Source: a virus (lineage: Duplodnaviria; Caudoviricetes). From it: a stretch of 30,408 bases of DNA. The translations under genes were made by a program, and so were the position numbers. Each line of letters opens with the position of its first letter. The first letter of the stretch is position 1. The DNA is taken from positions 1 through 30,408 of the IMG/VR virus record IMGVR_UViG_3300033067_000499. The stretch is one strand, 5' to 3'. Below the pieces are notes generated by a model. The model saw only the letters and a list, made by a program, of their open reading frames with translations. It was not told where the DNA came from and made no database searches. Of the stretch, positions 17,975-30,408 are shown one piece after another.

Positions 17975-18394
17975 TTAGAGGCCGCCGTCCTTGATCGTAG
18001 CGAAGGCGGCGTCGAACACTTCCTTCGGAGACGGCCGCTCCCGCGGCAGCTCCACGCCGTTCTCGTCGTAGCCCCGGATGGCGCTGCGGGGGAGTGGCAA
18101 GCCGTGCAGCTCCTCGAGCTCTTTCTGCAGCAGGGCCAGCGCCCGCCACGCCACCTTGACCGAATGAAGCTGGCCATCGGTGTCGACGGTGCCGCGCTCG
18201 ACGAGGTGGCGCAGCAGCGTGTCCGCCTCGTCGCCCGACTTCGAGCGGTCCCAGCGCACCGGCTTACCGGGGTTGTGCTGCTCGTTGGCGATCATGGACA
18301 GGCGCGCCACGGCGGCCAGGGCGTCGGGGAAGTAGTCGATCAGCCCGGTCACCATGGGGATGCCCTTGCGGGCCTGGGCGTCAGTCGGCAGCAT
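17975..18394 (-). CDS. dATP/dGTP diphosphohydrolase-like protein (DUF5664 family)
   Basis: RKGIPM..GL.DYFPDALAAVARLS...NEQHNPG.P..WDRSKS.DE.D.LLRHL...G..D.DG.LH..KVAWRALA.LQ matches the DUF5664 pattern. AAGGAG RBS. Confidence 0.75.
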   Translation of the reverse strand: MLPTDAQARKGIPMVTGLIDYFPDALAAVARLSMIANEQHNPGKPVRWDRSKSGDEADTLLRHLVERGTVDTDGQLHSVKVAWRALALLQKELEELHGLPLPRSAIRGYDENGVELPRERPSPKEVFDAAFATIKDGGL

Positions 18395-18752: not shown

Positions 18753-18904
18753 CCTTCCCTCCTGGGGTAGGGCGCGGTCATGTAGAAGGCGTAGCTCGGA
18801 TCCTCGGCGAAGCGCTGCGAGGCCCAGGCCCGGCCGGCGGCGTGCGTGGGGAAGATCTCGAACGGGATCCGCCCCTGCACCTCCGTCAGTCTCAGCCCTG
18901 CCAC
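18614..18904 (-). CDS. Hypothetical protein, ~96 aa (MAGLRLTEVQGRIPFEIFPTHAAGRAW...)
   Basis: GTG start overlapping the end of the metallophosphoesterase gene. Strong GC3 codon bias in the first half. Fills an otherwise empty gap at 18753-18891. Confidence 0.5.
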   Translation of the reverse strand: MAGLRLTEVQGRIPFEIFPTHAAGRAWASQRFAEDPSYAFYMTAPYPRREGCSPVARTTRTAAAVASPAINTPTIEEEPLWDTETKPAEPVTDWEV

Positions 18905-20127
18905 GTCAGCCACTCGGCTTCGGCCTCGGTGCGCTGTTGCTGCAGCTTCACCTCCCAGCGGGCGGTGACGCCGTGCTTGGGGTGGACGAAGAACAGCGAC
19001 TGCGACGCCGGCGCGTAGGGCGCGCGCAGGGCCAGGCGGGCGTACTCGTCGTAGCCCTTGAGGCAGTTGTTGACGATCACGCCCGGCAGCCACAGGGTCT
19101 GGTGCCAGTGGCCCATCAGGATGTAGTCGACGTCGCGGCCGATCTGGCGCTCGCTGTTGCCGACCTTGATGGAGCCGCGCATGATCGGGCCGATGGCACC
19201 GATGATGCCGTCGCCGCCCTTCACGCCCAGGCTGTCGCCGTGGGTCAGCAGGAACCGGCGGCCGCTCACCTTGAAGAAGGCGTCGGTGTTCTCGGGGATC
19301 AGAAAGGTGATGCGCTTGTCGCGCCGGAAGTGGCGCTCGAGGTTGCAGTAGATGTTCCACTCGTGCGAGGTGAACACCCGCCCCTTCATGCGCGGCTTGC
19401 GGCTGGCGCGGCCGTGGTTGCCCACGACGCAGGGGACGAAGACCTTGCCGAACTCGTCGGCCATCTTCTCGAGCGCCGAGGCCAACAGGTCGGTCAGGTC
19501 GTTGATGCACTGCTGGGTGGTGCGGTCGTTGGTGGCGAACAGCTCCTCGTGGATGTCGCCGGAGATCATGTCGCCGCCCAGGCACACGACGATGCCCGGG
19601 TACTTCGCGTCGCCCTGGCCCATGTGGTTCCGGCACAGGTCGATGGTCGCCTCGACGAGCTGCTCGGCCCGGGCTTTGGCGATGTCGGCGTTGAACTCGT
19701 TGAGACCGTTCACCTCCTCGGCGCGCACAGTCTCGCCATAGTGCCAGTCGGACCAGATGGTCACGGGCACGCCCAGGCTGCGGATCGGCGGCTTCTCGGG
19801 CGAGGTCCACTTCGGCGGCTCCGGCGTGCGGGCGGCGAGGCGGTAGATCTCCTGGCGGATCCGCTCGGCGCTGTCGGCTTCCTTGGACAGGCGGCCGATG
19901 TCGATGCGGGCCCGGGACAGCTCGATGCGGAGCCGGTCCACCTCGGTCAGGATCTGGCTCTCGGCCGTCAGCCCACGGGCCTCAGCATAGCCGATGCGCT
20001 TGTTGACGACGTTGGCGTCCACCTGCAGGAAGCGGGCGGCTGCGCGGATGCTGCCCTTGTCGCGGACGGCCCGCAGGGCCTCCACGATCTCGGCGTCGGT
20101 GGTCTGAGCTATGGCCATCGGGGTCAT
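18892..20127 (-). CDS. Calcineurin-like metallophosphoesterase with N-terminal HTH and coiled coil
   Basis: All five motifs are present: SDWHYG, GGDMISG, VGNHGR, THGD, MGHWH. N-terminal EALRAVRDKGSIRAAARFLQVDANVVNKRI is HTH-like. Start is 20127 (ATGA overlap) or 20118. Confidence 0.85.
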   Translation of the reverse strand: MTPMAIAQTTDAEIVEALRAVRDKGSIRAAARFLQVDANVVNKRIGYAEARGLTAESQILTEVDRLRIELSRARIDIGRLSKEADSAERIRQEIYRLAARTPEPPKWTSPEKPPIRSLGVPVTIWSDWHYGETVRAEEVNGLNEFNADIAKARAEQLVEATIDLCRNHMGQGDAKYPGIVVCLGGDMISGDIHEELFATNDRTTQQCINDLTDLLASALEKMADEFGKVFVPCVVGNHGRASRKPRMKGRVFTSHEWNIYCNLERHFRRDKRITFLIPENTDAFFKVSGRRFLLTHGDSLGVKGGDGIIGAIGPIMRGSIKVGNSERQIGRDVDYILMGHWHQTLWLPGVIVNNCLKGYDEYARLALRAPYAPASQSLFFVHPKHGVTARWEVKLQQQRTEAEAEWLTWQG

Positions 20128-20618
20128 TCCTTCGTGAGGGTTGCCATTGCGAACTTCAGGAGGCACCAAGCGTCGGCCTCGTGCTCGTTGTCGCCACCAT
20201 AGCCCATGAGCTGGGCGGCTTCAATCATGTCGGCTTTGTCAGCGTTGCCCTTGCCGACCGCCCACTTCTTGATCTCGGCCGGGGTGATGTCGAGGACGGG
20301 CACGCCGGCGTTGTGCGCCGCAGCTTCGAGGATGCCGGCCATGCCCCACAGGAGGCGCGTGGCAGCCTGGCCCCGGGCGAACGGGCGCTCGTAGACCACG
20401 ATGTCGAGCCGGGACGTGGCGTCGTTCATGGCAGCTAGGGTGGCGGCGAAGCTGCCCAGCACCTCCGGTCGCTTGCGCGCCAGCTTCGGTCTGTTGCGGT
20501 CGGGGTTCTCGTCGATATGGAACGCCTCGGCTTTGTCCCCCAGCAGCTCGGCCTTGGCGGAGAGCTGGTTCGTGGCGATGGCCCAGGTCGAGCCCAGGTC
20601 GAAGGCGGCGATCTTCAT
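20124..20618 (-). CDS. RuvC-like Holliday junction resolvase, 164 aa
   Basis: MKIAAFDLG, VVYERPF, TPAEIKKWAVGKGNADKADM, NEHEADA (acidic catalytic residues). ATGA overlap with the polymerase stop. Corresponds to the 3' end of the 20124..21932 track ORF. Confidence 0.85.
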   Translation of the reverse strand: MKIAAFDLGSTWAIATNQLSAKAELLGDKAEAFHIDENPDRNRPKLARKRPEVLGSFAATLAAMNDATSRLDIVVYERPFARGQAATRLLWGMAGILEAAAHNAGVPVLDITPAEIKKWAVGKGNADKADMIEAAQLMGYGGDNEHEADAWCLLKFAMATLTKE

Positions 20619-22657
20619 TTGCGGTATCGGTCTCCCTGCCACGCGTCGACCTTGATCGGGATGCCGATCTCGCGGGTCCACGGCTGGATGTCTTCCATGA
20701 TCTGTTTGAACGCCTTCAGGTCGGCGTCCACCTTCAGCGGCTCGGCGACGATCTCGTCGTGAACCTCGAGCACCACCGGGAACCCGTTGGCCTCGAGCCG
20801 CTTCTTCGCGTCTTCCATCACCTCGCGCTCGATCTTCATGACCGCGTTCTCGGTGAGTTGGCCCCCGAAGGCGTCGCGGGTCACCCAGCGGCCGGCCTTC
20901 ATCACCTGATAGCTGAAGCCGCGGCGGACGTCGGTCTCGTCCCACGGCATCGGCCGGCGGGTGCGCTGGGGGTTGAAGTAGTGGATGGTCGAGCCGTTGG
21001 GGAAGCGGGCCGTCAGCCACTGATCCTCGAGATAGTAGACGATGCCGTGCGTCTCCTGGGGCGTGCCGTCCCACACGCAGCGGATCGCCGCGTCCTGCAG
21101 GGCGTACCACAGCTCGGGGACGCAGGGGGCCCACTCTTTGCGGTAGACGCGCACCACCTCCTCGCAGAAGACCAGCGTCTGGCCCTTGCCGTATTTGATC
21201 AGGAAGGTGCGGCCGCCCATCTGGAAGCCCAGGCCGAGCACGCTGTTCTTCCCGGTCTGGCGCTCGATCAGATCCTTCTTGGTGATCTCCCGCTTGTAGA
21301 TCTGCGAGCCCATGTCGCAGTAAATGTCCGCGCCGGCGGCCATCAGGGCGACCTTGTCCCGTTGCCCGGCCAGGGCCAGGACGGTGCGCGCCTGGATCCC
21401 GGCGTAGTCGCCGGCGAGCAGGATGCGGTCGTCGTCGCAGGTGATGCAGTGGCGCAGGCTCGAGACCACCGTCTCTACGGCCGGGCCGTACATGCTCTCG
21501 ATCAGATCCGCGTCGCGCATCTTCAGGGCGCGCACCAGCGGCGTCGGATCCGGCGTGTCCCCGTCTTCCTTCAGGGAGCCGCGGGGGAAGTTGTGGGGCT
21601 GCAGCAGGCGGCCCGCCTGGCGGCCGGGGCCGGTGCCGTGGTAGACGAGGAGCTGCCGCGCACGGCCGTCGTAGCCGCAGCAATGGCGCATCGCCGCCAG
21701 CTTCTTGATGCTTGCCGAACCGACGAGCTGCCTGATATGAAGGGCCTCCCGCACCTCGGCGGGGAGAGGCACATGCTCCGGCTCCTCCACACCCGTGTCC
21801 CATTCGTCGCCTTCGGGGTCGGCATAGCCTGCATCGTCGTCTGTGGCGTCGGGCTCGTCGTCCTCGCCTAGCAGCTCGGCCAGCGTATCCTTCTGCAGGT
21901 TCGGCAGGTGGACGCCGCGGTCGGCGCACCATTGCTTGACCTTGGCGATCTGGCCGAAGCTGAGGCCGCCCGTCAGCTCGCGGAAGCGCTCGGCCAGCGG
22001 GCCCGAGGCTTGGTCGACGATGTCCTGCATGGCCGCCACCAGCTCGCGGTCGAGCCGCACGCCGCGGTCATTGGTGCGCGTGGAGGCCAGCCAGATGGGG
22101 CGCTCGTGCGCCGGCAGCCAGCCGATGCGGCGGTGCAGGGCGACCTGGGCGTCGATGTCGACGAAGCAGTAGTCCACGATCCGCTTCAGCGTCTCGGCCG
22201 TGATCTGCGGCCGCACGCCGGTCTTGGCGTACTCGCGGTTCAGCTTCCGCACCAGGGCGTTGCCCTCCATGTCCTTGGACACGGGCAGCTTCAGCACCGG
22301 CAGGACGCGGTCGAGGCCTGCGGGGAGCACGAGCTGCTGGCCCCGGGCCATGGTGTCGTGCCACTGCTCGAGGGGCAGTGCCGGCCAGCCATGCTCGCGC
22401 TCCATCTGCCAGCGCCAGATCGACCGCTCGAAGCCGGCTTGGTGCGCCACGAAGATGACGCCCTTCTCGATAGCCTGGCGGATGATGTCGGGGCACGGCT
22501 GCCCCTGGACCCAGGATCCGCGCCGGCGGTCGCTGGCCTCCCAGCAGAGGCACAGCACCTCGGTGGTGAAGTCCTGGGCGTAGCGGTCAGCGCCGGCCTT
22601 CGTCAGGTCGCAGGCGCTCAGCGTCTCGAAGTCGACGACGATCCAGGGCTGGGCCAT
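20615..22657 (-). CDS. Family A DNA polymerase with 3'-5' exonuclease (APSE/SPO2-type phage polymerase), 680 aa
   Basis: Exo motifs DFET, AHQAGFE, YCFVD; GR.AGRLLQPHNFPR; motif A GDYAGIQAR; motif B RQTGKNSVLGLGF; motif C VHDEIV. GGGAGG RBS and TGATG coupling at 22657. Confidence 0.92.
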   Translation of the reverse strand: MAQPWIVVDFETLSACDLTKAGADRYAQDFTTEVLCLCWEASDRRRGSWVQGQPCPDIIRQAIEKGVIFVAHQAGFERSIWRWQMEREHGWPALPLEQWHDTMARGQQLVLPAGLDRVLPVLKLPVSKDMEGNALVRKLNREYAKTGVRPQITAETLKRIVDYCFVDIDAQVALHRRIGWLPAHERPIWLASTRTNDRGVRLDRELVAAMQDIVDQASGPLAERFRELTGGLSFGQIAKVKQWCADRGVHLPNLQKDTLAELLGEDDEPDATDDDAGYADPEGDEWDTGVEEPEHVPLPAEVREALHIRQLVGSASIKKLAAMRHCCGYDGRARQLLVYHGTGPGRQAGRLLQPHNFPRGSLKEDGDTPDPTPLVRALKMRDADLIESMYGPAVETVVSSLRHCITCDDDRILLAGDYAGIQARTVLALAGQRDKVALMAAGADIYCDMGSQIYKREITKKDLIERQTGKNSVLGLGFQMGGRTFLIKYGKGQTLVFCEEVVRVYRKEWAPCVPELWYALQDAAIRCVWDGTPQETHGIVYYLEDQWLTARFPNGSTIHYFNPQRTRRPMPWDETDVRRGFSYQVMKAGRWVTRDAFGGQLTENAVMKIEREVMEDAKKRLEANGFPVVLEVHDEIVAEPLKVDADLKAFKQIMEDIQPWTREIGIPIKVDAWQGDRYRK

Positions 22658-22958: not shown

Positions 22959-23621
22959 CTACCAATCCGTCGTGCCGGCACCGCCGGTCGGATCGACCTG
23001 ACTGTCGATGCCGATGTAGCCCTTGAAGACGTCGGCCCCGGAGGTGCCGCCCGTGATCAGGGCCTCGCCGGTGTTCGTCGAGCACACCTTGTTCAGGTAC
23101 GCCGTGACGCCCGGCTTGCCTTCGCCGACCGCATCGTAGGCCTGGAAGTTCACCTCGAACAGGACGTTCTTGCCCGTGTCGAAGCGCTTCTTCGCCGCCT
23201 TGATGGCATCCTGGCCGTCGAGCAGCACCCAGCGGCCGCCTTCGATGTGCGACAGCTCCGGCTGGAACTGCGACCGCGCGACCAGCACCTGCCGTCCGCG
23301 CGACCATTCGCGCTTCTTGCCCTTCGCCGTGGCCTTGTCCGCCAGCTTGTCGCCGGGGGTCAGGGGGACGAGGATCTCGCCGGCCTTGATGGCAGCGCCG
23401 ATGTCGCGGCCGGGCCACTTCGCCTGGGCGACGGCCACGATCTTGGCGCGGGCCGCCTGCAGGTCGACGTGATCGGCCTCGAACTCGAAGTTGGCGCTGA
23501 ATTTGGGTTCCTCTTTCGAGGACTGCGTGACCTTCTTCGCCTCCACGACGTTGAGGAAGCTGCCCAGGACGGGCTTGCTGGAGCTGAACAGCCCGAGCTG
23601 GTCGTTGGTTTCGGTGGTCAT
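22959..23621 (-). CDS. Single-stranded DNA-binding protein (DUF2815 / T7 gp2.5-like OB fold)
   Basis: SFLNVVEAK...EPKFSANF...PLTPGDK...ARSQFQP...F.AYD...KPGVTAYLNKV...GEAL..GG..GADVF, with an acidic/aromatic C-terminus (TTDW). Canonical position between DUF2800 and the polymerase. Confidence 0.8.
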   Translation of the reverse strand: MTTETNDQLGLFSSSKPVLGSFLNVVEAKKVTQSSKEEPKFSANFEFEADHVDLQAARAKIVAVAQAKWPGRDIGAAIKAGEILVPLTPGDKLADKATAKGKKREWSRGRQVLVARSQFQPELSHIEGGRWVLLDGQDAIKAAKKRFDTGKNVLFEVNFQAYDAVGEGKPGVTAYLNKVCSTNTGEALITGGTSGADVFKGYIGIDSQVDPTGGAGTTDW

Positions 23622-23709: not shown

Positions 23710-23866
23710 CCGCCTTCTTCGTCGAAGGTTTCGGCGGCGACGGGAAGTCCGGCCAGCGCTTGCCGATACCGCGGCTGGTCTTGCCTTGGTTGGGGCCGCC
23801 GGCGTCGAACGTCGTGCGCTTGCCTCTGCGGTTGGTGCCGCTGTATCCAGGGGCGTAGGGCATCAC
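23684..23866 (-). CDS. Small basic hypothetical protein, ~60 aa
   Basis: Start (GTG 23866 or ATG 23863) overlaps the DUF2800 stop; reasonable codon bias; Lys/Arg/Gly/Pro-rich. Confidence 0.45.
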   Translation of the reverse strand: MMPYAPGYSGTNRRGKRTTFDAGGPNQGKTSRGIGKRWPDFPSPPKPSTKKAVDRSATKD

Positions 23867-25140
23867 TCAGCTTTCTCCAGATAGGCCTTGAACACCTCGG
23901 ACCCCTGCGTGACCTTGACGGCCAGCCGGCTGTCGTCGGCCAGGGCGACGGTGAGGCCGGTGTCGGGCGAGTACGCCCATTCCTTGACCCACTCTTTGGC
24001 GGCCGGCAGCTTCTCCAGCTCGGCCGGGGACTTCAGCTCGCGCGGCTTCCAGGCGTCGTCGCCGAACTTGCCCTTGGCGATGTCGACCGCCCCGGGCTTG
24101 AACACGCGGTTGGCCTTCTTCCGCACCAGCTTGATGCCTGGCACCTGCGCGCCCCGCATCTGCCGGTCCAGCGCCTCGCGCTCGAGGGCGCGGATGTAGT
24201 GCTTGACCGCCTCGGCCGCCTTGTAGTTGAGGCCCAGGGTCTCGTTGGTCATGTCGGGGATGTGCTTGGCGTTGGCCGTAGCGCCGGCCCCGAACATGGC
24301 GGTCAGCAAGGGGCAAACCAGCTTCGCCGGGCAGAAGCGGCAGTGCTCGCCGGCGTCGAGCCGATCATCGAACTGCGTGGCGTTCATGGCGGGCACCAGC
24401 GTGCCGTGGATCCAGGCCTTGATCTCGCCCACGGTGGTGTCCCACTCGCGGACCTGACCGTCAGGGTGCCACTCGATCCGCGGCTGCGCGATAGCCAGGC
24501 GAACGGTGTGCTCGTCGCGCATGGTGCGGCCGTACTGGCGCTCCAGGCCGTCGATCAGGCCGAAGGCATAATACTTGAGCTGGGGGTTGTCCTCCACCTC
24601 GACGGCCAAGCCCTCGCCGCCCTTCAGATCCACGACGTACAGGACGTGCTTGCCGTCCGGCTCGATCACGGCCGTGCCGAAGTCGGCGGTGCCGTAGAAC
24701 GCGGGATGGACCGGCGAGCTGATGGCGTACTCGATCCAGACGTCGCCGGCGTCAGCGGCCGCGGAGACGCGGCGGCAGTAGTCGAGGTAGACCCCGATGG
24801 GCGTCGCCAGATCCGCGGTGATCTTGGTGTCGTTGTAGGTCGAGCCGACCAGCTCGTAGCTCTCCAGCTCCTCCAGCAGGGCGGTGGCGGCGGCCTCGTG
24901 CATGGCCGTGCCGATGCGGCGATAGTCGGGCTCGTCGCTCTCGCCCAGGTCCAGGCGCTTCAGCAGCTCTACCGAGCCCGGGCACTTCATCCAGCGCTCA
25001 GCACCGGACGCGCCCAGCGGCGAGTGGCCGCGGCGGCTGTGGTCCTGGGGCTCGGCCGGCGCGCGATCAGCCTGGCGGAAGATCTCCGCGGCGCGCTCCT
25101 CGGCGGCCAGCTCGGCCTCGGCGTCTCGAACAACGGTCAT
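23863..25140 (-). CDS. DUF2800 family PD-(D/E)xK (Cas4/RecB-like) exonuclease
   Basis: HSPLGASGAERWMKCPGS, GTAMHE, IEY, GTADF, VVDLKGG, NPQLKYYAFG, IAQPR, GEHCRFCPAKLVCP (Cys cluster). GAGGAG RBS before ATG 25140; the frame is open upstream to GTG 25251. Confidence 0.88.
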   Translation of the reverse strand: MTVVRDAEAELAAEERAAEIFRQADRAPAEPQDHSRRGHSPLGASGAERWMKCPGSVELLKRLDLGESDEPDYRRIGTAMHEAAATALLEELESYELVGSTYNDTKITADLATPIGVYLDYCRRVSAAADAGDVWIEYAISSPVHPAFYGTADFGTAVIEPDGKHVLYVVDLKGGEGLAVEVEDNPQLKYYAFGLIDGLERQYGRTMRDEHTVRLAIAQPRIEWHPDGQVREWDTTVGEIKAWIHGTLVPAMNATQFDDRLDAGEHCRFCPAKLVCPLLTAMFGAGATANAKHIPDMTNETLGLNYKAAEAVKHYIRALEREALDRQMRGAQVPGIKLVRKKANRVFKPGAVDIAKGKFGDDAWKPRELKSPAELEKLPAAKEWVKEWAYSPDTGLTVALADDSRLAVKVTQGSEVFKAYLEKAE

Positions 25141-25254
25141 GGGTGGTGCTCCTCGACTAGCACGGGGATCAATCCACGCCCCTCGAGCCTTGGCCTTGGC
25201 GTTCGCTTCCGCGATCCAGGCCAGCTCTTGGGGCGTGAATTGCTTGGGCACTGG

Positions 25255-25999: not shown

Positions 26000-26231
26000 G
26001 CGGAAAGAGTGCGAGCACCTTCTCCGCGTCCTCCAGCCTGGCAGCCACCTCGGCGACTGCGTCGGCATAGGGCGGCGGCGTCCGGTGCAGGATCCCGCTC
26101 CCTACCTGGGCCACGCGGGCGTTCCGCAGGGCGTTGTTCAGGGGATGCTCCACGTCATGCAGCGCTCGGCTGATGCGGTTGAGCCGATCCTGTGCGGCGT
26201 GCGCCGCGGCTATCGTTTCTTCGTGGGTCAC
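25980..26231 (-). CDS. Hypothetical helical protein, ~83 aa (MTHEETIAAAH...)
   Basis: GTGA overlap with the upstream stop; AGGAG RBS; fills the gap between neighbours. Confidence 0.55.
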   Translation of the reverse strand: MTHEETIAAAHAAQDRLNRISRALHDVEHPLNNALRNARVAQVGSGILHRTPPPYADAVAEVAARLEDAEKVLALFPLDAAAG

Positions 26232-26851
26232 CACTCTATGCTCCTGGCTATCTCGATCAGCAGATCCCTGAACGGGAGGGGCGTGCGGTCGCGGATCTCG
26301 GTCTTGTTCTTCCCGCCGACCATGGCCATGTGGCCGATGCGTCGCGCCTTCTCGTAGCCATAGCGGGTGACCATCCACTCTGGCAAGGGCTTATCTGCCT
26401 TCCCCCAAATCAGCTCGGGGAGCCGCACCTTGCAGGCGTAGAGGAAGGTGCCCTTGCGGCTGAAGTGGCCGTAGTGGCCCTGCTCCACGTAGCAGGCGTA
26501 GCCGCCGAAGTCGTCGACCGGCACCCAGCCGCCGGCGCGGGGCGGGTGCTTCAGCCCGTAGTAGGCGTAGGCGTGGGTGTCGGCCGGGTGCTCGACCACG
26601 CCGCCGAAGGTGCGGGCCGCCCACAGCGACTGCGCGAAGCGGCCGCCGTCGTCGCCCAGGTGGTACTGATGGGGCTTGCGGGGTGAGCCGCCCCAATACT
26701 TCCCCCAGCGCTGGCAGGGCGGGTGCGCCACCACCGGGTGGGGGCCGGGGTACTCGCGGCTGCCGCGGGGCAGGGCCCAGGGGTCGACGCCCTCCAGCCC
26801 GAAGTAGACGCCGTCAGCCTCAACGTAGAGCGCAGCGATCTGCAGGGGCAT
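26228..26851 (-). CDS. Divergent minimal C5-cytosine DNA methyltransferase-like protein, 207 aa
   Basis: Catalytic-type VVAHPPCQRW (motif IV), VVEHP (motif VI, ENP-like), EQGHYGHFSRKGTFLY (motif VIII-like) and C-terminal RDRTPLPFRDLL. No FxGxG motif I. Confidence 0.6.
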   Translation of the reverse strand: MPLQIAALYVEADGVYFGLEGVDPWALPRGSREYPGPHPVVAHPPCQRWGKYWGGSPRKPHQYHLGDDGGRFAQSLWAARTFGGVVEHPADTHAYAYYGLKHPPRAGGWVPVDDFGGYACYVEQGHYGHFSRKGTFLYACKVRLPELIWGKADKPLPEWMVTRYGYEKARRIGHMAMVGGKNKTEIRDRTPLPFRDLLIEIARSIEW

Positions 26852-28464
26852 TACATCCTCCGGTCCAGGGCCTTGTGGGTGTCTTGCTTCTTCCGCAGGC
26901 TGGTGCCCAGCACCCGCTCGCTGAAGCTGCCCTTCGCCACGAGGAAGTCGAACAGCACCTCCCCGCTCTGGCCCATGCGGTCGAGCCTGTCAATGGCCTG
27001 CTCGTTGTTGCCGGGGGTCCAGTCGCACTCGGCGGCGACGCCGCGCTGGCACACCTCCTGCAGCCCGTCCGTGCCCGTGCCCATGCTGAGCAGGTTGCCG
27101 ACGATCAGCCGGTGGACGGGGGAGCGGAAGGCCTCGATCACCGCCTGTTTCTTGGAGGGCGGGGTCGAGCCGTCGATGCGGAGCGGGTTGTAGCGGGCCA
27201 GCTTCTTGCAGAGGATGTCGAGCACCTGGGTGTGCCAGGCGAACACGACCACCTTCTCCTCGCCGCCCTCGAGCAGCATGTCGACGTAGTCGGCGGCGTG
27301 CGGGGCGATAGCAATGCCCATCATCCGGCGCACCGTCGAGATCTGGCCCATGATGGCCGCGTCGACCCCCTCTAGGTTCTCGGGGTCGATGTCCAGCATG
27401 CTCTCGGCGCGCAGCGCAGCCTTGATGTGCTGGTCCTCCTCGACGTGGACGATGTCCAGGGCCGGCAGCTTGAGCTGGGGCAGCACCTCCCGCTTCAGCC
27501 GGCGCACCATGAAGTTGGCGCGGAGCCGTGCCTGCAGCTCCCCGGAGCGGCCGACCCGCTCGTCGATGTAGAGCCGGCCGTCCTTGGTTTCCTTCTGCTC
27601 CGAGGGGTTGAAGCGGATGCTGAACTTCTCCTCCGACATCCAGTCGATGCTGTCGAAGCACAGCCCCCGGGCCAGGGTGTAAGCCTCGCGCGGCCGGTTC
27701 GGCAGCGGCGTGCCGGTCAGCCCGCAGACGTAGGCGCAGCGGCTGGCGAGGTGCTCAAACTCGCGGTTCTCCCCGCCCCCGAACACCGCGCGCGTGCGCT
27801 GGCTGTCGATGGTCTTGAGATAGTGCGCCTCGTCGAGGATCAGCAGATCGTAGTAGCCCTTGGCCAAGGCGCGGCCGATGGCCGGCGTGCGCGCCAGATC
27901 GTAGCTGACGACGGTCCAGGCTGCGTCGGGGTGGACGCCGTGCCGGCCGTGCAGAATGGGGTAGACGGTGAAGGGCCACGTCATGGTCGTCCACTCGCGG
28001 ATCCGCTTCACCCACTGCAGGCGGATGTTCGCCGGGCAGAGCACGAGGATCCGCTTCGCCTGCATTTCGTTGGCGAGGCAGATCCCCTGCATGGTCTTGC
28101 CGAGGCCGGGCTGATCGCCGATCAGGCAATTCTCCCGGCGCAGGGCGTACTCCACCCCCGCCTTCTGGAACGGCGACAGCTCTTTGTCGGCCGGGCAGGC
28201 GATGTGCGCCTGGCTTTCGGCCGCCCACGAGCTGGCGACCTGGGCCTGCAGCTCCTGCAGGACCGCGGCCGCGCGGGGCGTCGCGTGTTCGAAGAAGGCG
28301 ACCGCGGCGTAGGGCTCGGCCGTGAACAGGACGTCCTCCAGCTCATTCGAGAGGGGAACGCTCCTGTCCAGGCCGTGTTCCTTCATGATCACCCCCGGAT
28401 CCGCCTCCCAGCGGGGGACGTTGAGAGTGAACTTCCGGGTCTCGGGGTAGTAGTCCAGCTTCAC
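26851..28464 (-). CDS. SNF2-family (SF2) helicase/annealing ATPase, 537 aa
   Basis: GDQPGLGKT, LCPA, VSYD, LDEAH, LTGTP, RRLKREVLPQL, VFAWH, IDGST, WTPGNNEQAIDRLDRMGQ. GTG start at 28464 by GTGA overlap. Confidence 0.92.
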   Translation of the reverse strand: MKLDYYPETRKFTLNVPRWEADPGVIMKEHGLDRSVPLSNELEDVLFTAEPYAAVAFFEHATPRAAAVLQELQAQVASSWAAESQAHIACPADKELSPFQKAGVEYALRRENCLIGDQPGLGKTMQGICLANEMQAKRILVLCPANIRLQWVKRIREWTTMTWPFTVYPILHGRHGVHPDAAWTVVSYDLARTPAIGRALAKGYYDLLILDEAHYLKTIDSQRTRAVFGGGENREFEHLASRCAYVCGLTGTPLPNRPREAYTLARGLCFDSIDWMSEEKFSIRFNPSEQKETKDGRLYIDERVGRSGELQARLRANFMVRRLKREVLPQLKLPALDIVHVEEDQHIKAALRAESMLDIDPENLEGVDAAIMGQISTVRRMMGIAIAPHAADYVDMLLEGGEEKVVVFAWHTQVLDILCKKLARYNPLRIDGSTPPSKKQAVIEAFRSPVHRLIVGNLLSMGTGTDGLQEVCQRGVAAECDWTPGNNEQAIDRLDRMGQSGEVLFDFLVAKGSFSERVLGTSLRKKQDTHKALDRRM

Positions 28465-28985: not shown

Positions 28986-30408
28986 ATGCATTCCCCCTGG
29001 AAATACTTCCCCACCGGCCCGGGGCATAAGCGGCCGGCGCTCGAAGGCGACTGGCGCGAACACGCGACCGCCGACGAAGCGCAGATCCACGCGTGGGAGG
29101 CAGCCGGCTACAATCTGGCCCTCGACTGCGAGGCGTCGGGCGTCACGGTGATCGACCTTGACGGCGGCGACGTCGGCGCGACCACCTGGGCCAAGCTGGC
29201 CGAGGAGCATGGGATCGAGCCCACGTATACCGTCCGCACGCCGAAGGGCGGCCGTCACCTCTACTTCGAGGGCGCGGCCGCGACCAGCGTGCAGAAGCTG
29301 GGCCCCAAGGTGGACACCCGCGGCGTCGGCGGCTACGTGCTGGTGCCAGGCAGCGAGACCGAGGACGGCGTCTACAGCGTGCTGGAGGATCGCCCGCTGG
29401 CGCGGCTGCCGGCGTGGATCCCCACGGTGCTGGCGTCGGCCCACGAGGCGCGCGCCGCGGCCGTGGTCGAGCTGGATCTGCCCTCCAACGTCACGCGCGG
29501 GATCGCCTTCCTGCAGGGCCGGCAGCCGGTCTACCAGGGCGACGGGGCCGACGCCAAGACCTACGAGACCGCCGCGCGCCTGCGCGACTTCGGCCTCTCC
29601 CAGGACAAGATCATCGACCTGATGCTGGAGCACTACAAGTGCTTCCCCAAGGACGACCGCTTCGAAGCCTTCATCACCCGCAAAGTCGAAAATGTGCATG
29701 AGTACGCGCAGAACGAAGCGGGTGCATGGGGCGTCACCCCCGGCAGCGAGACGTTCGCGGCCTACCTCGACAGCATGCCGCCAGCGGCTGCCGGGGGTGA
29801 TCAGCCCGACCCGTTCAAGGCCTACACCGAGGCCGAGCAGGACGCGTTCCAAGAGCCGGCGTGGCTGGCGCGGGATCTCCTGCCGGCGGACAGTCTGGTG
29901 ATGCTGCTGGGGCCGCCCGGATCCTACAAGTCGTTCGTGGCGCTCGACATCGGCATGACCCTGGCCGCGGGGGTGCCAGGCTGGGAGCTGCCGGCGGCCG
30001 AGGCGCAGCAGGTGGTCTATGTCGCCGGCGAGGGGCCGCGGTCCATCGGCCGGCTGCGCCGCCCTGCGTGGCGTCTGGCGCGCGGGATCGAGGGCCCGGT
30101 GCCCTTCCATCTGGTGGCGAACATGCCGCTGGCGTCGATGCCCGAGCAGATCCACGCGTTCTGCGCCTCCATCAAGGCCCAGGGCATCCACCCGCGCCTC
30201 GTCGTGATCGACACCCTGGCCCGGTTCATGCTCGGGCTCAACGAGAATGACGCCAAGGACTGCGGCACGGTGATCGCCGCCCTCGACCACATCAAGCGCA
30301 CGCTGCGCTGCACGGTCCTCGTCATCCACCACACCGGCAAGGACGCCGAGCGCGGGAGCCGCGGATCCAATGCCCTGATCGGCGGGATCGAGACGCTGCA
30401 CGAGGTGC
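28986..30408 (+). CDS. Bifunctional primase-polymerase (Prim-Pol) fused to RepA/AAA_25-type helicase; 3'-truncated, absent from the ORF track
   Basis: Manual translation from ATG 28986: MHSPWKYFPTGPGHKRPALEGDWREHAT..., VIDLD, VRTPKGGRHLYF, VDTRGVGGYVLVPGS (Prim-Pol); Walker A GPPGSYKS, YVAGEG, Walker B VVIDTLAR, IHHTGKD...RGSNAL. No stop before the window end. Confidence 0.92.
   Translation, partial: MHSPWKYFPTGPGHKRPALEGDWREHATADEAQIHAWEAAGYNLALDCEASGVTVIDLDGGDVGATTWAKLAEEHGIEPTYTVRTPKGGRHLYFEGAAATSVQKLGPKVDTRGVGGYVLVPGSETEDGVYSVLEDRPLARLPAWIPTVLASAHEARAAAVVELDLPSNVTRGIAFLQGRQPVYQGDGADAKTYETAARLRDFGLSQDKIIDLMLEHYKCFPKDDRFEAFITRKVENVHEYAQNEAGAWGVTPGSETFAAYLDSMPPAAAGGDQPDPFKAYTEAEQDAFQEPAWLARDLLPADSLVMLLGPPGSYKSFVALDIGMTLAAGVPGWELPAAEAQQVVYVAGEGPRSIGRLRRPAWRLARGIEGPVPFHLVANMPLASMPEQIHAFCASIKAQGIHPRLVVIDTLARFMLGLNENDAKDCGTVIAALDHIKRTLRCTVLVIHHTGKDAERGSRGSNALIGGIETLHEV

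Follow-up and report, generated by a model that had tools for sequence, protein, structure and literature searches.

A probable relocation of the motif A carboxylate to helix Q in a clade of phage family A DNA polymerases

The window polymerase and its described relatives

The closest described systems for the gene considered here are the SPO2-like (cluster 3, cd08642) and KPP25-like (cluster 12) PolA enzymes of phages, which combine an exonuclease and a polymerase domain in ~680 residues and for which Leu762 is the normal state (PMC10201439). In family A polymerases in general, the pocket residues E710 and Y766 have been called universally conserved (PMC3715850). The subject of this report is the polA gene of a 30,408-base fragment of a Caudoviricetes genome (IMG/VR record IMGVR_UViG_3300033067_000499; the window, below, is this whole stretch), in which both residues are replaced, by Q422 and F478, respectively. 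Comparison with its relatives suggests that the likely carboxylate partner of R668 now sits on helix Q instead of in motif A, and that the enzyme probably kept working as a deoxynucleoside triphosphate (dNTP) polymerase, a reading to which a probability of roughly 70% is assigned. Residue numbers are those of E. coli Pol I, with 710, 762 and 766 following PMC3715850, 668 and 849 following PMC10520511, and 666 and 852 counted from those.

The open reading frame (ORF) at 20615-22657 on the minus strand encodes 680 residues without an internal stop and contains the motif A Asp, the motif B Arg and Lys and the motif C His-Asp-Glu of family A, the fold and the catalytic Asp, Lys and Arg being shared with the Klenow, Taq and Bst enzymes. 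An AF2 (AlphaFold2) model has a mean predicted local distance difference test (pLDDT) value of 90.3, and its Foldseek comparison recovers a Klenow-like fold in the top 50 ranks of the PDB (E 2e-16 to 3e-13), with template modelling (TM) scores of ~0.6 for Klenow and G20c and of 0.85-0.87 for the polymerases of the phages RDJL and phiXaf18. Residues 267-294 form an acidic insertion in the thumb region, where pLDDT falls below 50. With Leu762 and intact exonuclease residues, the protein resembles the SPO2- and KPP25-like enzymes and is probably a PolA of this Leu762 type, the likeness being to both clusters jointly. It groups with the Xp12 and P26218 polymerases on a branch of support 100, in a tree from which SPO2 and KPP25 are absent. 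The best cultured matches (MJing1, Xp12, PaMx74, P26218 and DU_RP_II) are 28-32% identical, and the Xp12 and P26218 enzymes retain E710 and Y766, unlike that of the window. The excerpt of PMC10201439 makes no mention of Gln at the gate. The features of the gene are as follows, with frequencies taken from 120 listed homologs (55-100% identity, the query included).

20615..22657 (-): polA, family A DNA polymerase with 3'-5' exonuclease domain (phrog_17, E 4.8e-66)
22157..22633 (-): ExoI D9 and E11, ExoII H72-E77, ExoIII Y163 and D167; acidic residues intact
22439..22444 (-): ExoII H72-Q73; position 73 is Q in 5/120, N in 98, a gap in 11, other in 6
21626..21628 (-): P344, codon CCC, T666 equivalent; P in 118/120
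21620..21622 (-): R346, R668 equivalent, intact; predicted partner of E610
21407..21409 (-): motif A catalytic D417; D in 120/120
21392..21394 (-): Q422, codon CAG, steric-gate position (E710 equivalent); Q in 93, E in 27 of 120
21236..21262 (-): motif B R466, K470 and L474 (L762 type); K in 120/120, L in 120/120, R in 112/120
21236..21238 (-): L474, codon CTC, 762 equivalent; L in 120/120
21224..21226 (-): F478, codon TTC, Y766 equivalent; F in 120/120, also in distant E710 relatives
20837..20839 (-): M607, codon ATG, Q849 equivalent; M in 93, Q in 26, E in 1 of 120
20828..20830 (-): E610, codon GAG, A852 equivalent (Taq Q754+3); new helix Q Glu, predicted replacement carboxylate
20753..20761 (-): motif C His-Asp-Glu (H633-D634-E635); D634 in 120/120

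Two further comparisons bear on the pocket. The window enzyme naturally has both of the changes that were engineered in Klenow, E710Q and Y766F (PMC3715850), but the engineered E710Q stands alone, whereas the Q710 of the window comes with E852, M849 and P666. The DpoZ polymerases of the phiVC8-like and Wayne-like phages have Phe766, as F478 does here, and phiVC8 DpoZ also has Leu762 (PMC8599892). DUF5664 and NDT-like genes also lie nearby in the window clade. The DpoZ enzymes nevertheless differ in keeping E710, in their position in the tree and in their need for PurZ, and Phe766 is also present in many polymerases that are not DpoZ.

Coupling of residues 710, 852 and 668

Hidden Markov model (HMM) alignments to Taq place Q422 at the motif A Glu, F478 at the O-helix Tyr, M607 at the helix Q Gln and E610 three residues past that Gln. 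The initial annotation had described a coordinated set of pocket substitutions, and every residue and codon it named is found in the translated ORF. Its list lacked E852, whose codon lies at the very edge of the interval considered there and which turns out to be the recurring partner of Q710. In a scan of all alignment columns over 108 Q710 and 67 E710 rows of the near clade, position 610 is Glu in 103 of the Q rows and Ala in all 67 E rows, and positions 342, 631 and 347 likewise track the split.

A larger set of 203 rows, consisting of the 120 proteins and 83 rows derived from loci, with some proteins present twice, separates two layers of change. Q710 occurs with M849 in 107 rows and with S849 in one, while the combinations Q710 with Q849 and E710 with M849 are each found in none. 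The combination of P666, E710, L762, F766 and Q849 is seen in 51/203 rows. Since relatives that keep E710 carry P666, F766 and L762, these three predate the Q/M/E switch. The expected covariation thus holds for Q710 and M849, which travel as a group, but not for F766, and the proposal of a single package of five substitutions was abandoned in favour of this older layer. Q849M is seen in the window clade only, all other Q710 lineages that were read having retained Q849, and is therefore this clade's own addition. The HQ of ExoII, which had been listed among the changes, is a minor local variant outside the pocket switch.

The distribution of residue 668 gives the split a simple form. In the window family (203 rows), E852 is present in 103/103 rows with R668 and Q710 and in 0/5 rows with L668 and Q710, and all of the 92 E710 rows scored retain R668, with E852 in 0/92. 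By these counts, R668 is always accompanied by exactly one of two carboxylates, at 710 or at 852, and where R668 is lost, neither is retained. The Leu668 and Q710 enzymes without E852 (L022, L045, P0045, P0055 and P0100, and likewise L156), in which the Arg of the primer minor groove is apparently lacking, amount to five or six rows that may represent just two or three events. Adding L045 to the Q clade is rejected (approximately unbiased test, p-AU 5e-5), and this locus is either a separate origin or a recombinant.

Two variants of neighbouring motifs were also noted. In L027, L055 and P0098, which keep E710, Glu and Gln are exchanged between positions 603 and 607, so that Glu occupies the Q849 position; this exchange is another minor shift of charge within helix Q. 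The motif B Arg (R754 equivalent) is Tyr in 8/120 homologs, for example P0030, P0034, P0036 and P0087, with both E710 and Q710 rows among them.

The structural literature offers a basis on which such a relocation could work. In Bst, the equivalents of Q849, R668, E710 and D882 lie close together and interact electrostatically (PMC10520511), in Taq a water molecule bridges E615, N750, Q754 and the incoming dNTP (PMC6125688), and in the Pol gamma apoenzyme R853 contacts E895 while T851 likely positions Q1102 (PMC3241644). By analogy, E610 would contact R346 as E710 contacts R668, and E852, one helical turn from 849, would restore the charge partner of R668. Gln, being of the size of Glu, would still exclude the 2'-OH at the gate. 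The older Y766F and T666P may have removed hydrogen-bond partners of E710 and Q849 and thereby freed positions 710 and 849, and Q849M would then be a clade-specific repacking next to the new Glu. Klenow Y766F is near wild type (PMC3715850).

Recurrence in other lineages and the weighing of alternatives

Gln at the gate was searched for with DNA patterns constrained in motif A alone, helix Q being left free, and non-polymerase matches were dropped (4/17, 3/12 and 11/18). Among viral contigs, 13/17 matches of the first pattern are PolA of unrelated lineages, and the nine that were printed have F766, Q849 and E852 in 9/9; a second pattern gave PolA in 7/18 matches, with E852 in 6/6 of those printed. 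The 120 homologs of locus L136 include 12 Q710 rows, all with F766 and E852, and 108 E710 rows, of which none has E852, while the homologs of L134 have Q710, F766 and E852 in 120/120. The N-terminal extension of one Q710/F766/E852 PolA (L160:14714-16960, G051), from a contig that has an integrase, resembles uracil-DNA glycosylase by motifs in our own reading.

The swap is also found in cellular enzymes. Of 20 metagenome pattern matches, 19 reach helix Q, and these have E852 in 19/19, Q849 in 19 and Y766 in 16. The NCBIfam Pol I equivalog cut-off is passed by 7/9 of the metagenome proteins tested, and 16 enzymes of cellular Pol I type with Q710, E852 and Y766 (within L198-L217) lie on contigs of up to 377 kb. 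Six of them (L200, L201, L206, L207, L213 and L217) share Q710, E852 and R668 with the window enzyme and are unlike it in being full-length, with a 5'-3' exonuclease, F762, Y766 and Q849, and in lying next to ORFs of housekeeping type, whose N-termini we read as peptidyl-tRNA hydrolase-like and RecO-like. The core of the swap is thus E710Q plus A852E. In the phages that were read, Y766F goes along with it, but not in these bacteria. A tree of 52 rows, built by a quick method and with one long-branch warning, has six changes at 710, at least four of which are forced by its starred branches. The literature searched, which did not extend to subscription papers and bioRxiv supplements, contains no natural Q710/E852 swap and has E710Q as an engineered mutant only, and the excerpt of PMC13697223 treats the gate residue in its standard role only.

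Since unrelated enzymes of both phages and bacteria show the swap again, it is likely a functional second solution for copying ordinary DNA and not the sign of an exotic base. The rewiring is real, clade-wide and repeatedly evolved and, at the same odds of roughly 70%, most likely compensatory. Several points weigh against this. Rows within the clade are not independent of each other, and with the switch columns masked, a single Q/M/E origin in the polymerase domain gives p-AU values of 0.94 and 0.089; since a single origin is neither rejected nor established, covariation within the clade is weak evidence alone. The cellular Pol I enzymes, which keep Y766 and Q849, lend support to Q710 with E852 but not to Q849M and T666P, which the window clade has in addition. 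Klenow E710Q by itself is a mutator that incorporates nucleotides at a low rate (PMC3715850), no placement of A852 (A757) adjoining R668 was found in the literature searched, and no cultured member of the window clade was found, the best cultured match being 32% identical. Many independent switches inside the clade, as drawn by quick trees with 12, 8 and 7 changes, are not counted here, as the one-clade tests do not reject a single Q/M origin.

The mutator behaviour of Klenow E710Q also favours an unlikely alternative, in which activity is compensated but the minor-groove checks exerted by E710 and Q849 are lost, leaving a shifted error spectrum or an easier bypass of damage. Q849 reads the template's minor groove (PMC6125688), its mutation alters the error spectrum (PMC10520511), and the window clade alone has lost it as well. 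However, the acidic residues of the proofreading domain are intact, Klenow Q849A is reportedly less prone to T:G misinsertion (PMC10520511), and 14 Q710 genomes resemble 29 E710 genomes in GC content (p 0.4) and in palindrome use (p 0.12), with a single one of 29 sequence features at p 0.008, uncorrected. A relaxed steric gate that accepts ribonucleotides or another sugar is highly improbable. The ribose gate is formed by E710 (PMC3715850), next to which F766 lies, but Gln retains the side-chain length of Glu, and Klenow E710Q, unlike E710A, shows no favoured closure on rUTP, the K2 values for closure on A-rUTP being 0.056 for E710Q, 0.083 for the wild type and 0.16 for E710A (PMC3715850, Table 1). 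Moreover, Q710 is present in cellular Pol I, and the phage encodes its own Prim-Pol. The chance that the gene is decaying, or that its codons are assembly errors, is next to negligible. The Pfam family A match reaches 30.9 bits, below the family cut-off, and the Prim-Pol is a second polymerase-type domain in the window; against this, more than 100 rows at 44-80% identity share the residues, D417, K470 and D634 are present in 120/120 homologs, and synteny is conserved around polA. A contig from another sample within the same study is identical over 20725-20905, which covers the M607 and E610 codons (run X1 of this comparison, probably the source of the window itself, is not independent). The codons are thus no sequencing errors, and the view of a remodelled pocket rather than decay is upheld.

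The initial annotation had further suggested a non-canonical base or sugar, for which support is weak at best, given that there is no PurZ in the near loci searched, no gene that tracks Q710 and an avoidance of palindromes. A pocket adapted to Z, 7-deazaguanine or a modified pyrimidine with the help of adjacent nucleotide-hydrolase genes is very unlikely. It would fit the fact that F766 is common to both DpoZ clades and is their sole such change (PMC8599892, PMC10201439), that the window clade has DUF5664, NDT-like, HD and dCMP-deaminase genes, families which serve Z phages (PMC12884076), and that many small genes of the clade belong to no family. The strongest point against it is that cellular Pol I carries Q710 and E852. 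Furthermore, PurA/PurZ was found in 0/50 related records (0/33 of those at least 90% complete) and in 0/16 of another set, with the control giving a signal in 14/14 genomes, the search covering 50/57 near loci, with seven short contigs set aside. The NCBIfam DpoZ models NF038380 and NF038381 gave no match at E 1e-5, and the three DpoZ examined retain E710. The hydrolase cassette occurs in both E710 and Q710 loci, DUF5664 is also found in canonical phages (PMC12884076), and no gene tracks Q710, either among the ORF clusters from 16 Q710 and 41 E710 loci or in near-complete genomes (11 with Q710 and 10 with E710). Thymidylate synthase, DpdA/TGT, glycosyltransferase and kinase families are absent from the 130 and 139 clade proteins scanned with Pfam. 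The first scan covered 54/79 cluster representatives, 38/38 singles of Q loci and 37/126 singles of E loci, and the second 135/135 selected proteins plus four structural ones. In the other Q710 lineages, no common modification pathway is seen among the 146/260 proteins scanned, which include ThyX, MazG, DNA methyltransferases, DUF5664/NDT and integrase, along with isolated genes of the radical-SAM, glycosyltransferase and 2OG-Fe families that are confined to one or two genomes.

Palindrome counts, in which small overlaps between pieces are counted twice, point in the same direction. The window lacks 6/29 testable 6-bp palindromes (for example 0 against 29 and 0 against 37 expected), at a background of 0.004 for non-palindromes, and mixed-base palindromes are avoided in 13/14 Q genomes (0.38-0.70), compared with 0.72-0.90 in three Z phages, which avoid mainly GC-only sites. 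Median depletion of 6-base palindromes is 0.66 in the 14 Q and 0.63 in the 29 E genomes, the Q genome L006 shows little avoidance (ratio 0.96), and six genomes of other Q710 lineages avoid palindromes at 0.43-0.86. The test is not decisive, because palindromes are also avoided by two controls, 9g (0.74) and Wayne (0.62), and a partial modification may still be present. For these comparisons, Xp12 was taken to carry 5-methylcytosine and 9g to carry dG+. As a separate observation, GTAC is near or fully absent (0.00-0.03) in L019, L027, L029, L041, L047 and L048, which suggests GTAC-restricting hosts, and GCGC is likewise near or fully absent in G052, G054 and G063. A related idea, quite unlikely, is that the polymerase with Q849M and T666P ignores the template's minor groove and, independently of PurZ, copies a modified or damaged base that would be supplied or cleared by the cassette of phosphoesterase, cupin, NDT-like and DUF5664 genes.

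Residues called universally conserved in family A are seen to be replaceable through a reproducible second-site change, and nature offers an entire mutant cycle consisting of E710 with A852, Q710 with E852, and Q710 where both E852 and R668 are missing. The question whether the role of E710 is steric or lies in neutralising R668 becomes testable in this way, and should E852 rescue E710Q in Klenow or Taq, engineers could change the gate to suit modified nucleotides while sparing the activity that is usually lost. The window contributes a Leu762 background of SPO2/KPP25-like type, the additional changes Q849M and T666P and, as a natural control, R668L. A caution also follows for metagenomic surveys, in which Q710 or F766 should not be read as a sign that DNA is modified or that an enzyme is dead.

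Genome setting and variants of the polA neighbourhood

The window encodes a tail and virion module of podovirus type, together with an endolysin and a block of replication genes, and its gene order is common to related contigs of ~44 kb, the window being a 30 kb part of a genome type of about that size. GTDB contains at least two related loci, the near one being of E710 type on a 44.6 kb contig in a metagenome-assembled genome. The genes around polA are the following.

17975..18394 (-): DUF5664 (dGTP_diPhyd_N) pyrophosphohydrolase-like protein (PF18909); in 8/16 Q and 25/41 E loci
18892..20136 (-): phrog_284 'exonuclease', with phosphoesterase-like motifs in our own reading; in 12/16 Q and 23/41 E loci
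20124..20618 (-): RuvC-like resolvase (phrog_159), directly 3' of polA
22959..23621 (-): single-stranded DNA-binding protein, Enc34/gp2.5-like (PF10991, phrog_112)
23863..25251 (-): DUF2800 / PD-(D/E)XK exonuclease
26851..28401 (-): SNF2-type helicase
28986..30407 (+): Prim-Pol/AAA_25 primase-helicase, truncated at the window end

Across L001-L058, the slots 3' of polA hold a nuclease, the phosphoesterase-like gene, a gene that may be exchanged between loci (cupin, NDT-like, DUF4406 or HAD-like) and lastly DUF5664, a second cluster of which occurs in three Q and two E loci. The phosphoesterase slot is filled by phrog_1745 in L045 and L038, and in L051:12427-14439 a LAGLIDADG domain lies inside the phosphoesterase-like gene. 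A 207-residue phrog_12600 protein is encoded at 26228-26851 (-) of the window and also at L016:6012-6629. It has a Pro-Cys motif like that of C5 cytosine methyltransferases, a degenerate N-terminal motif and no Pfam match, and among the Pfam-bearing Atlas clusters, DNA_methylase lies nearest to it (score 0.91; TM 0.64). The polA gene itself varies in layout, being split into two ORFs in L049 and forming a 960-residue ORF in L152, where an insertion within motif B has an intein-like look.

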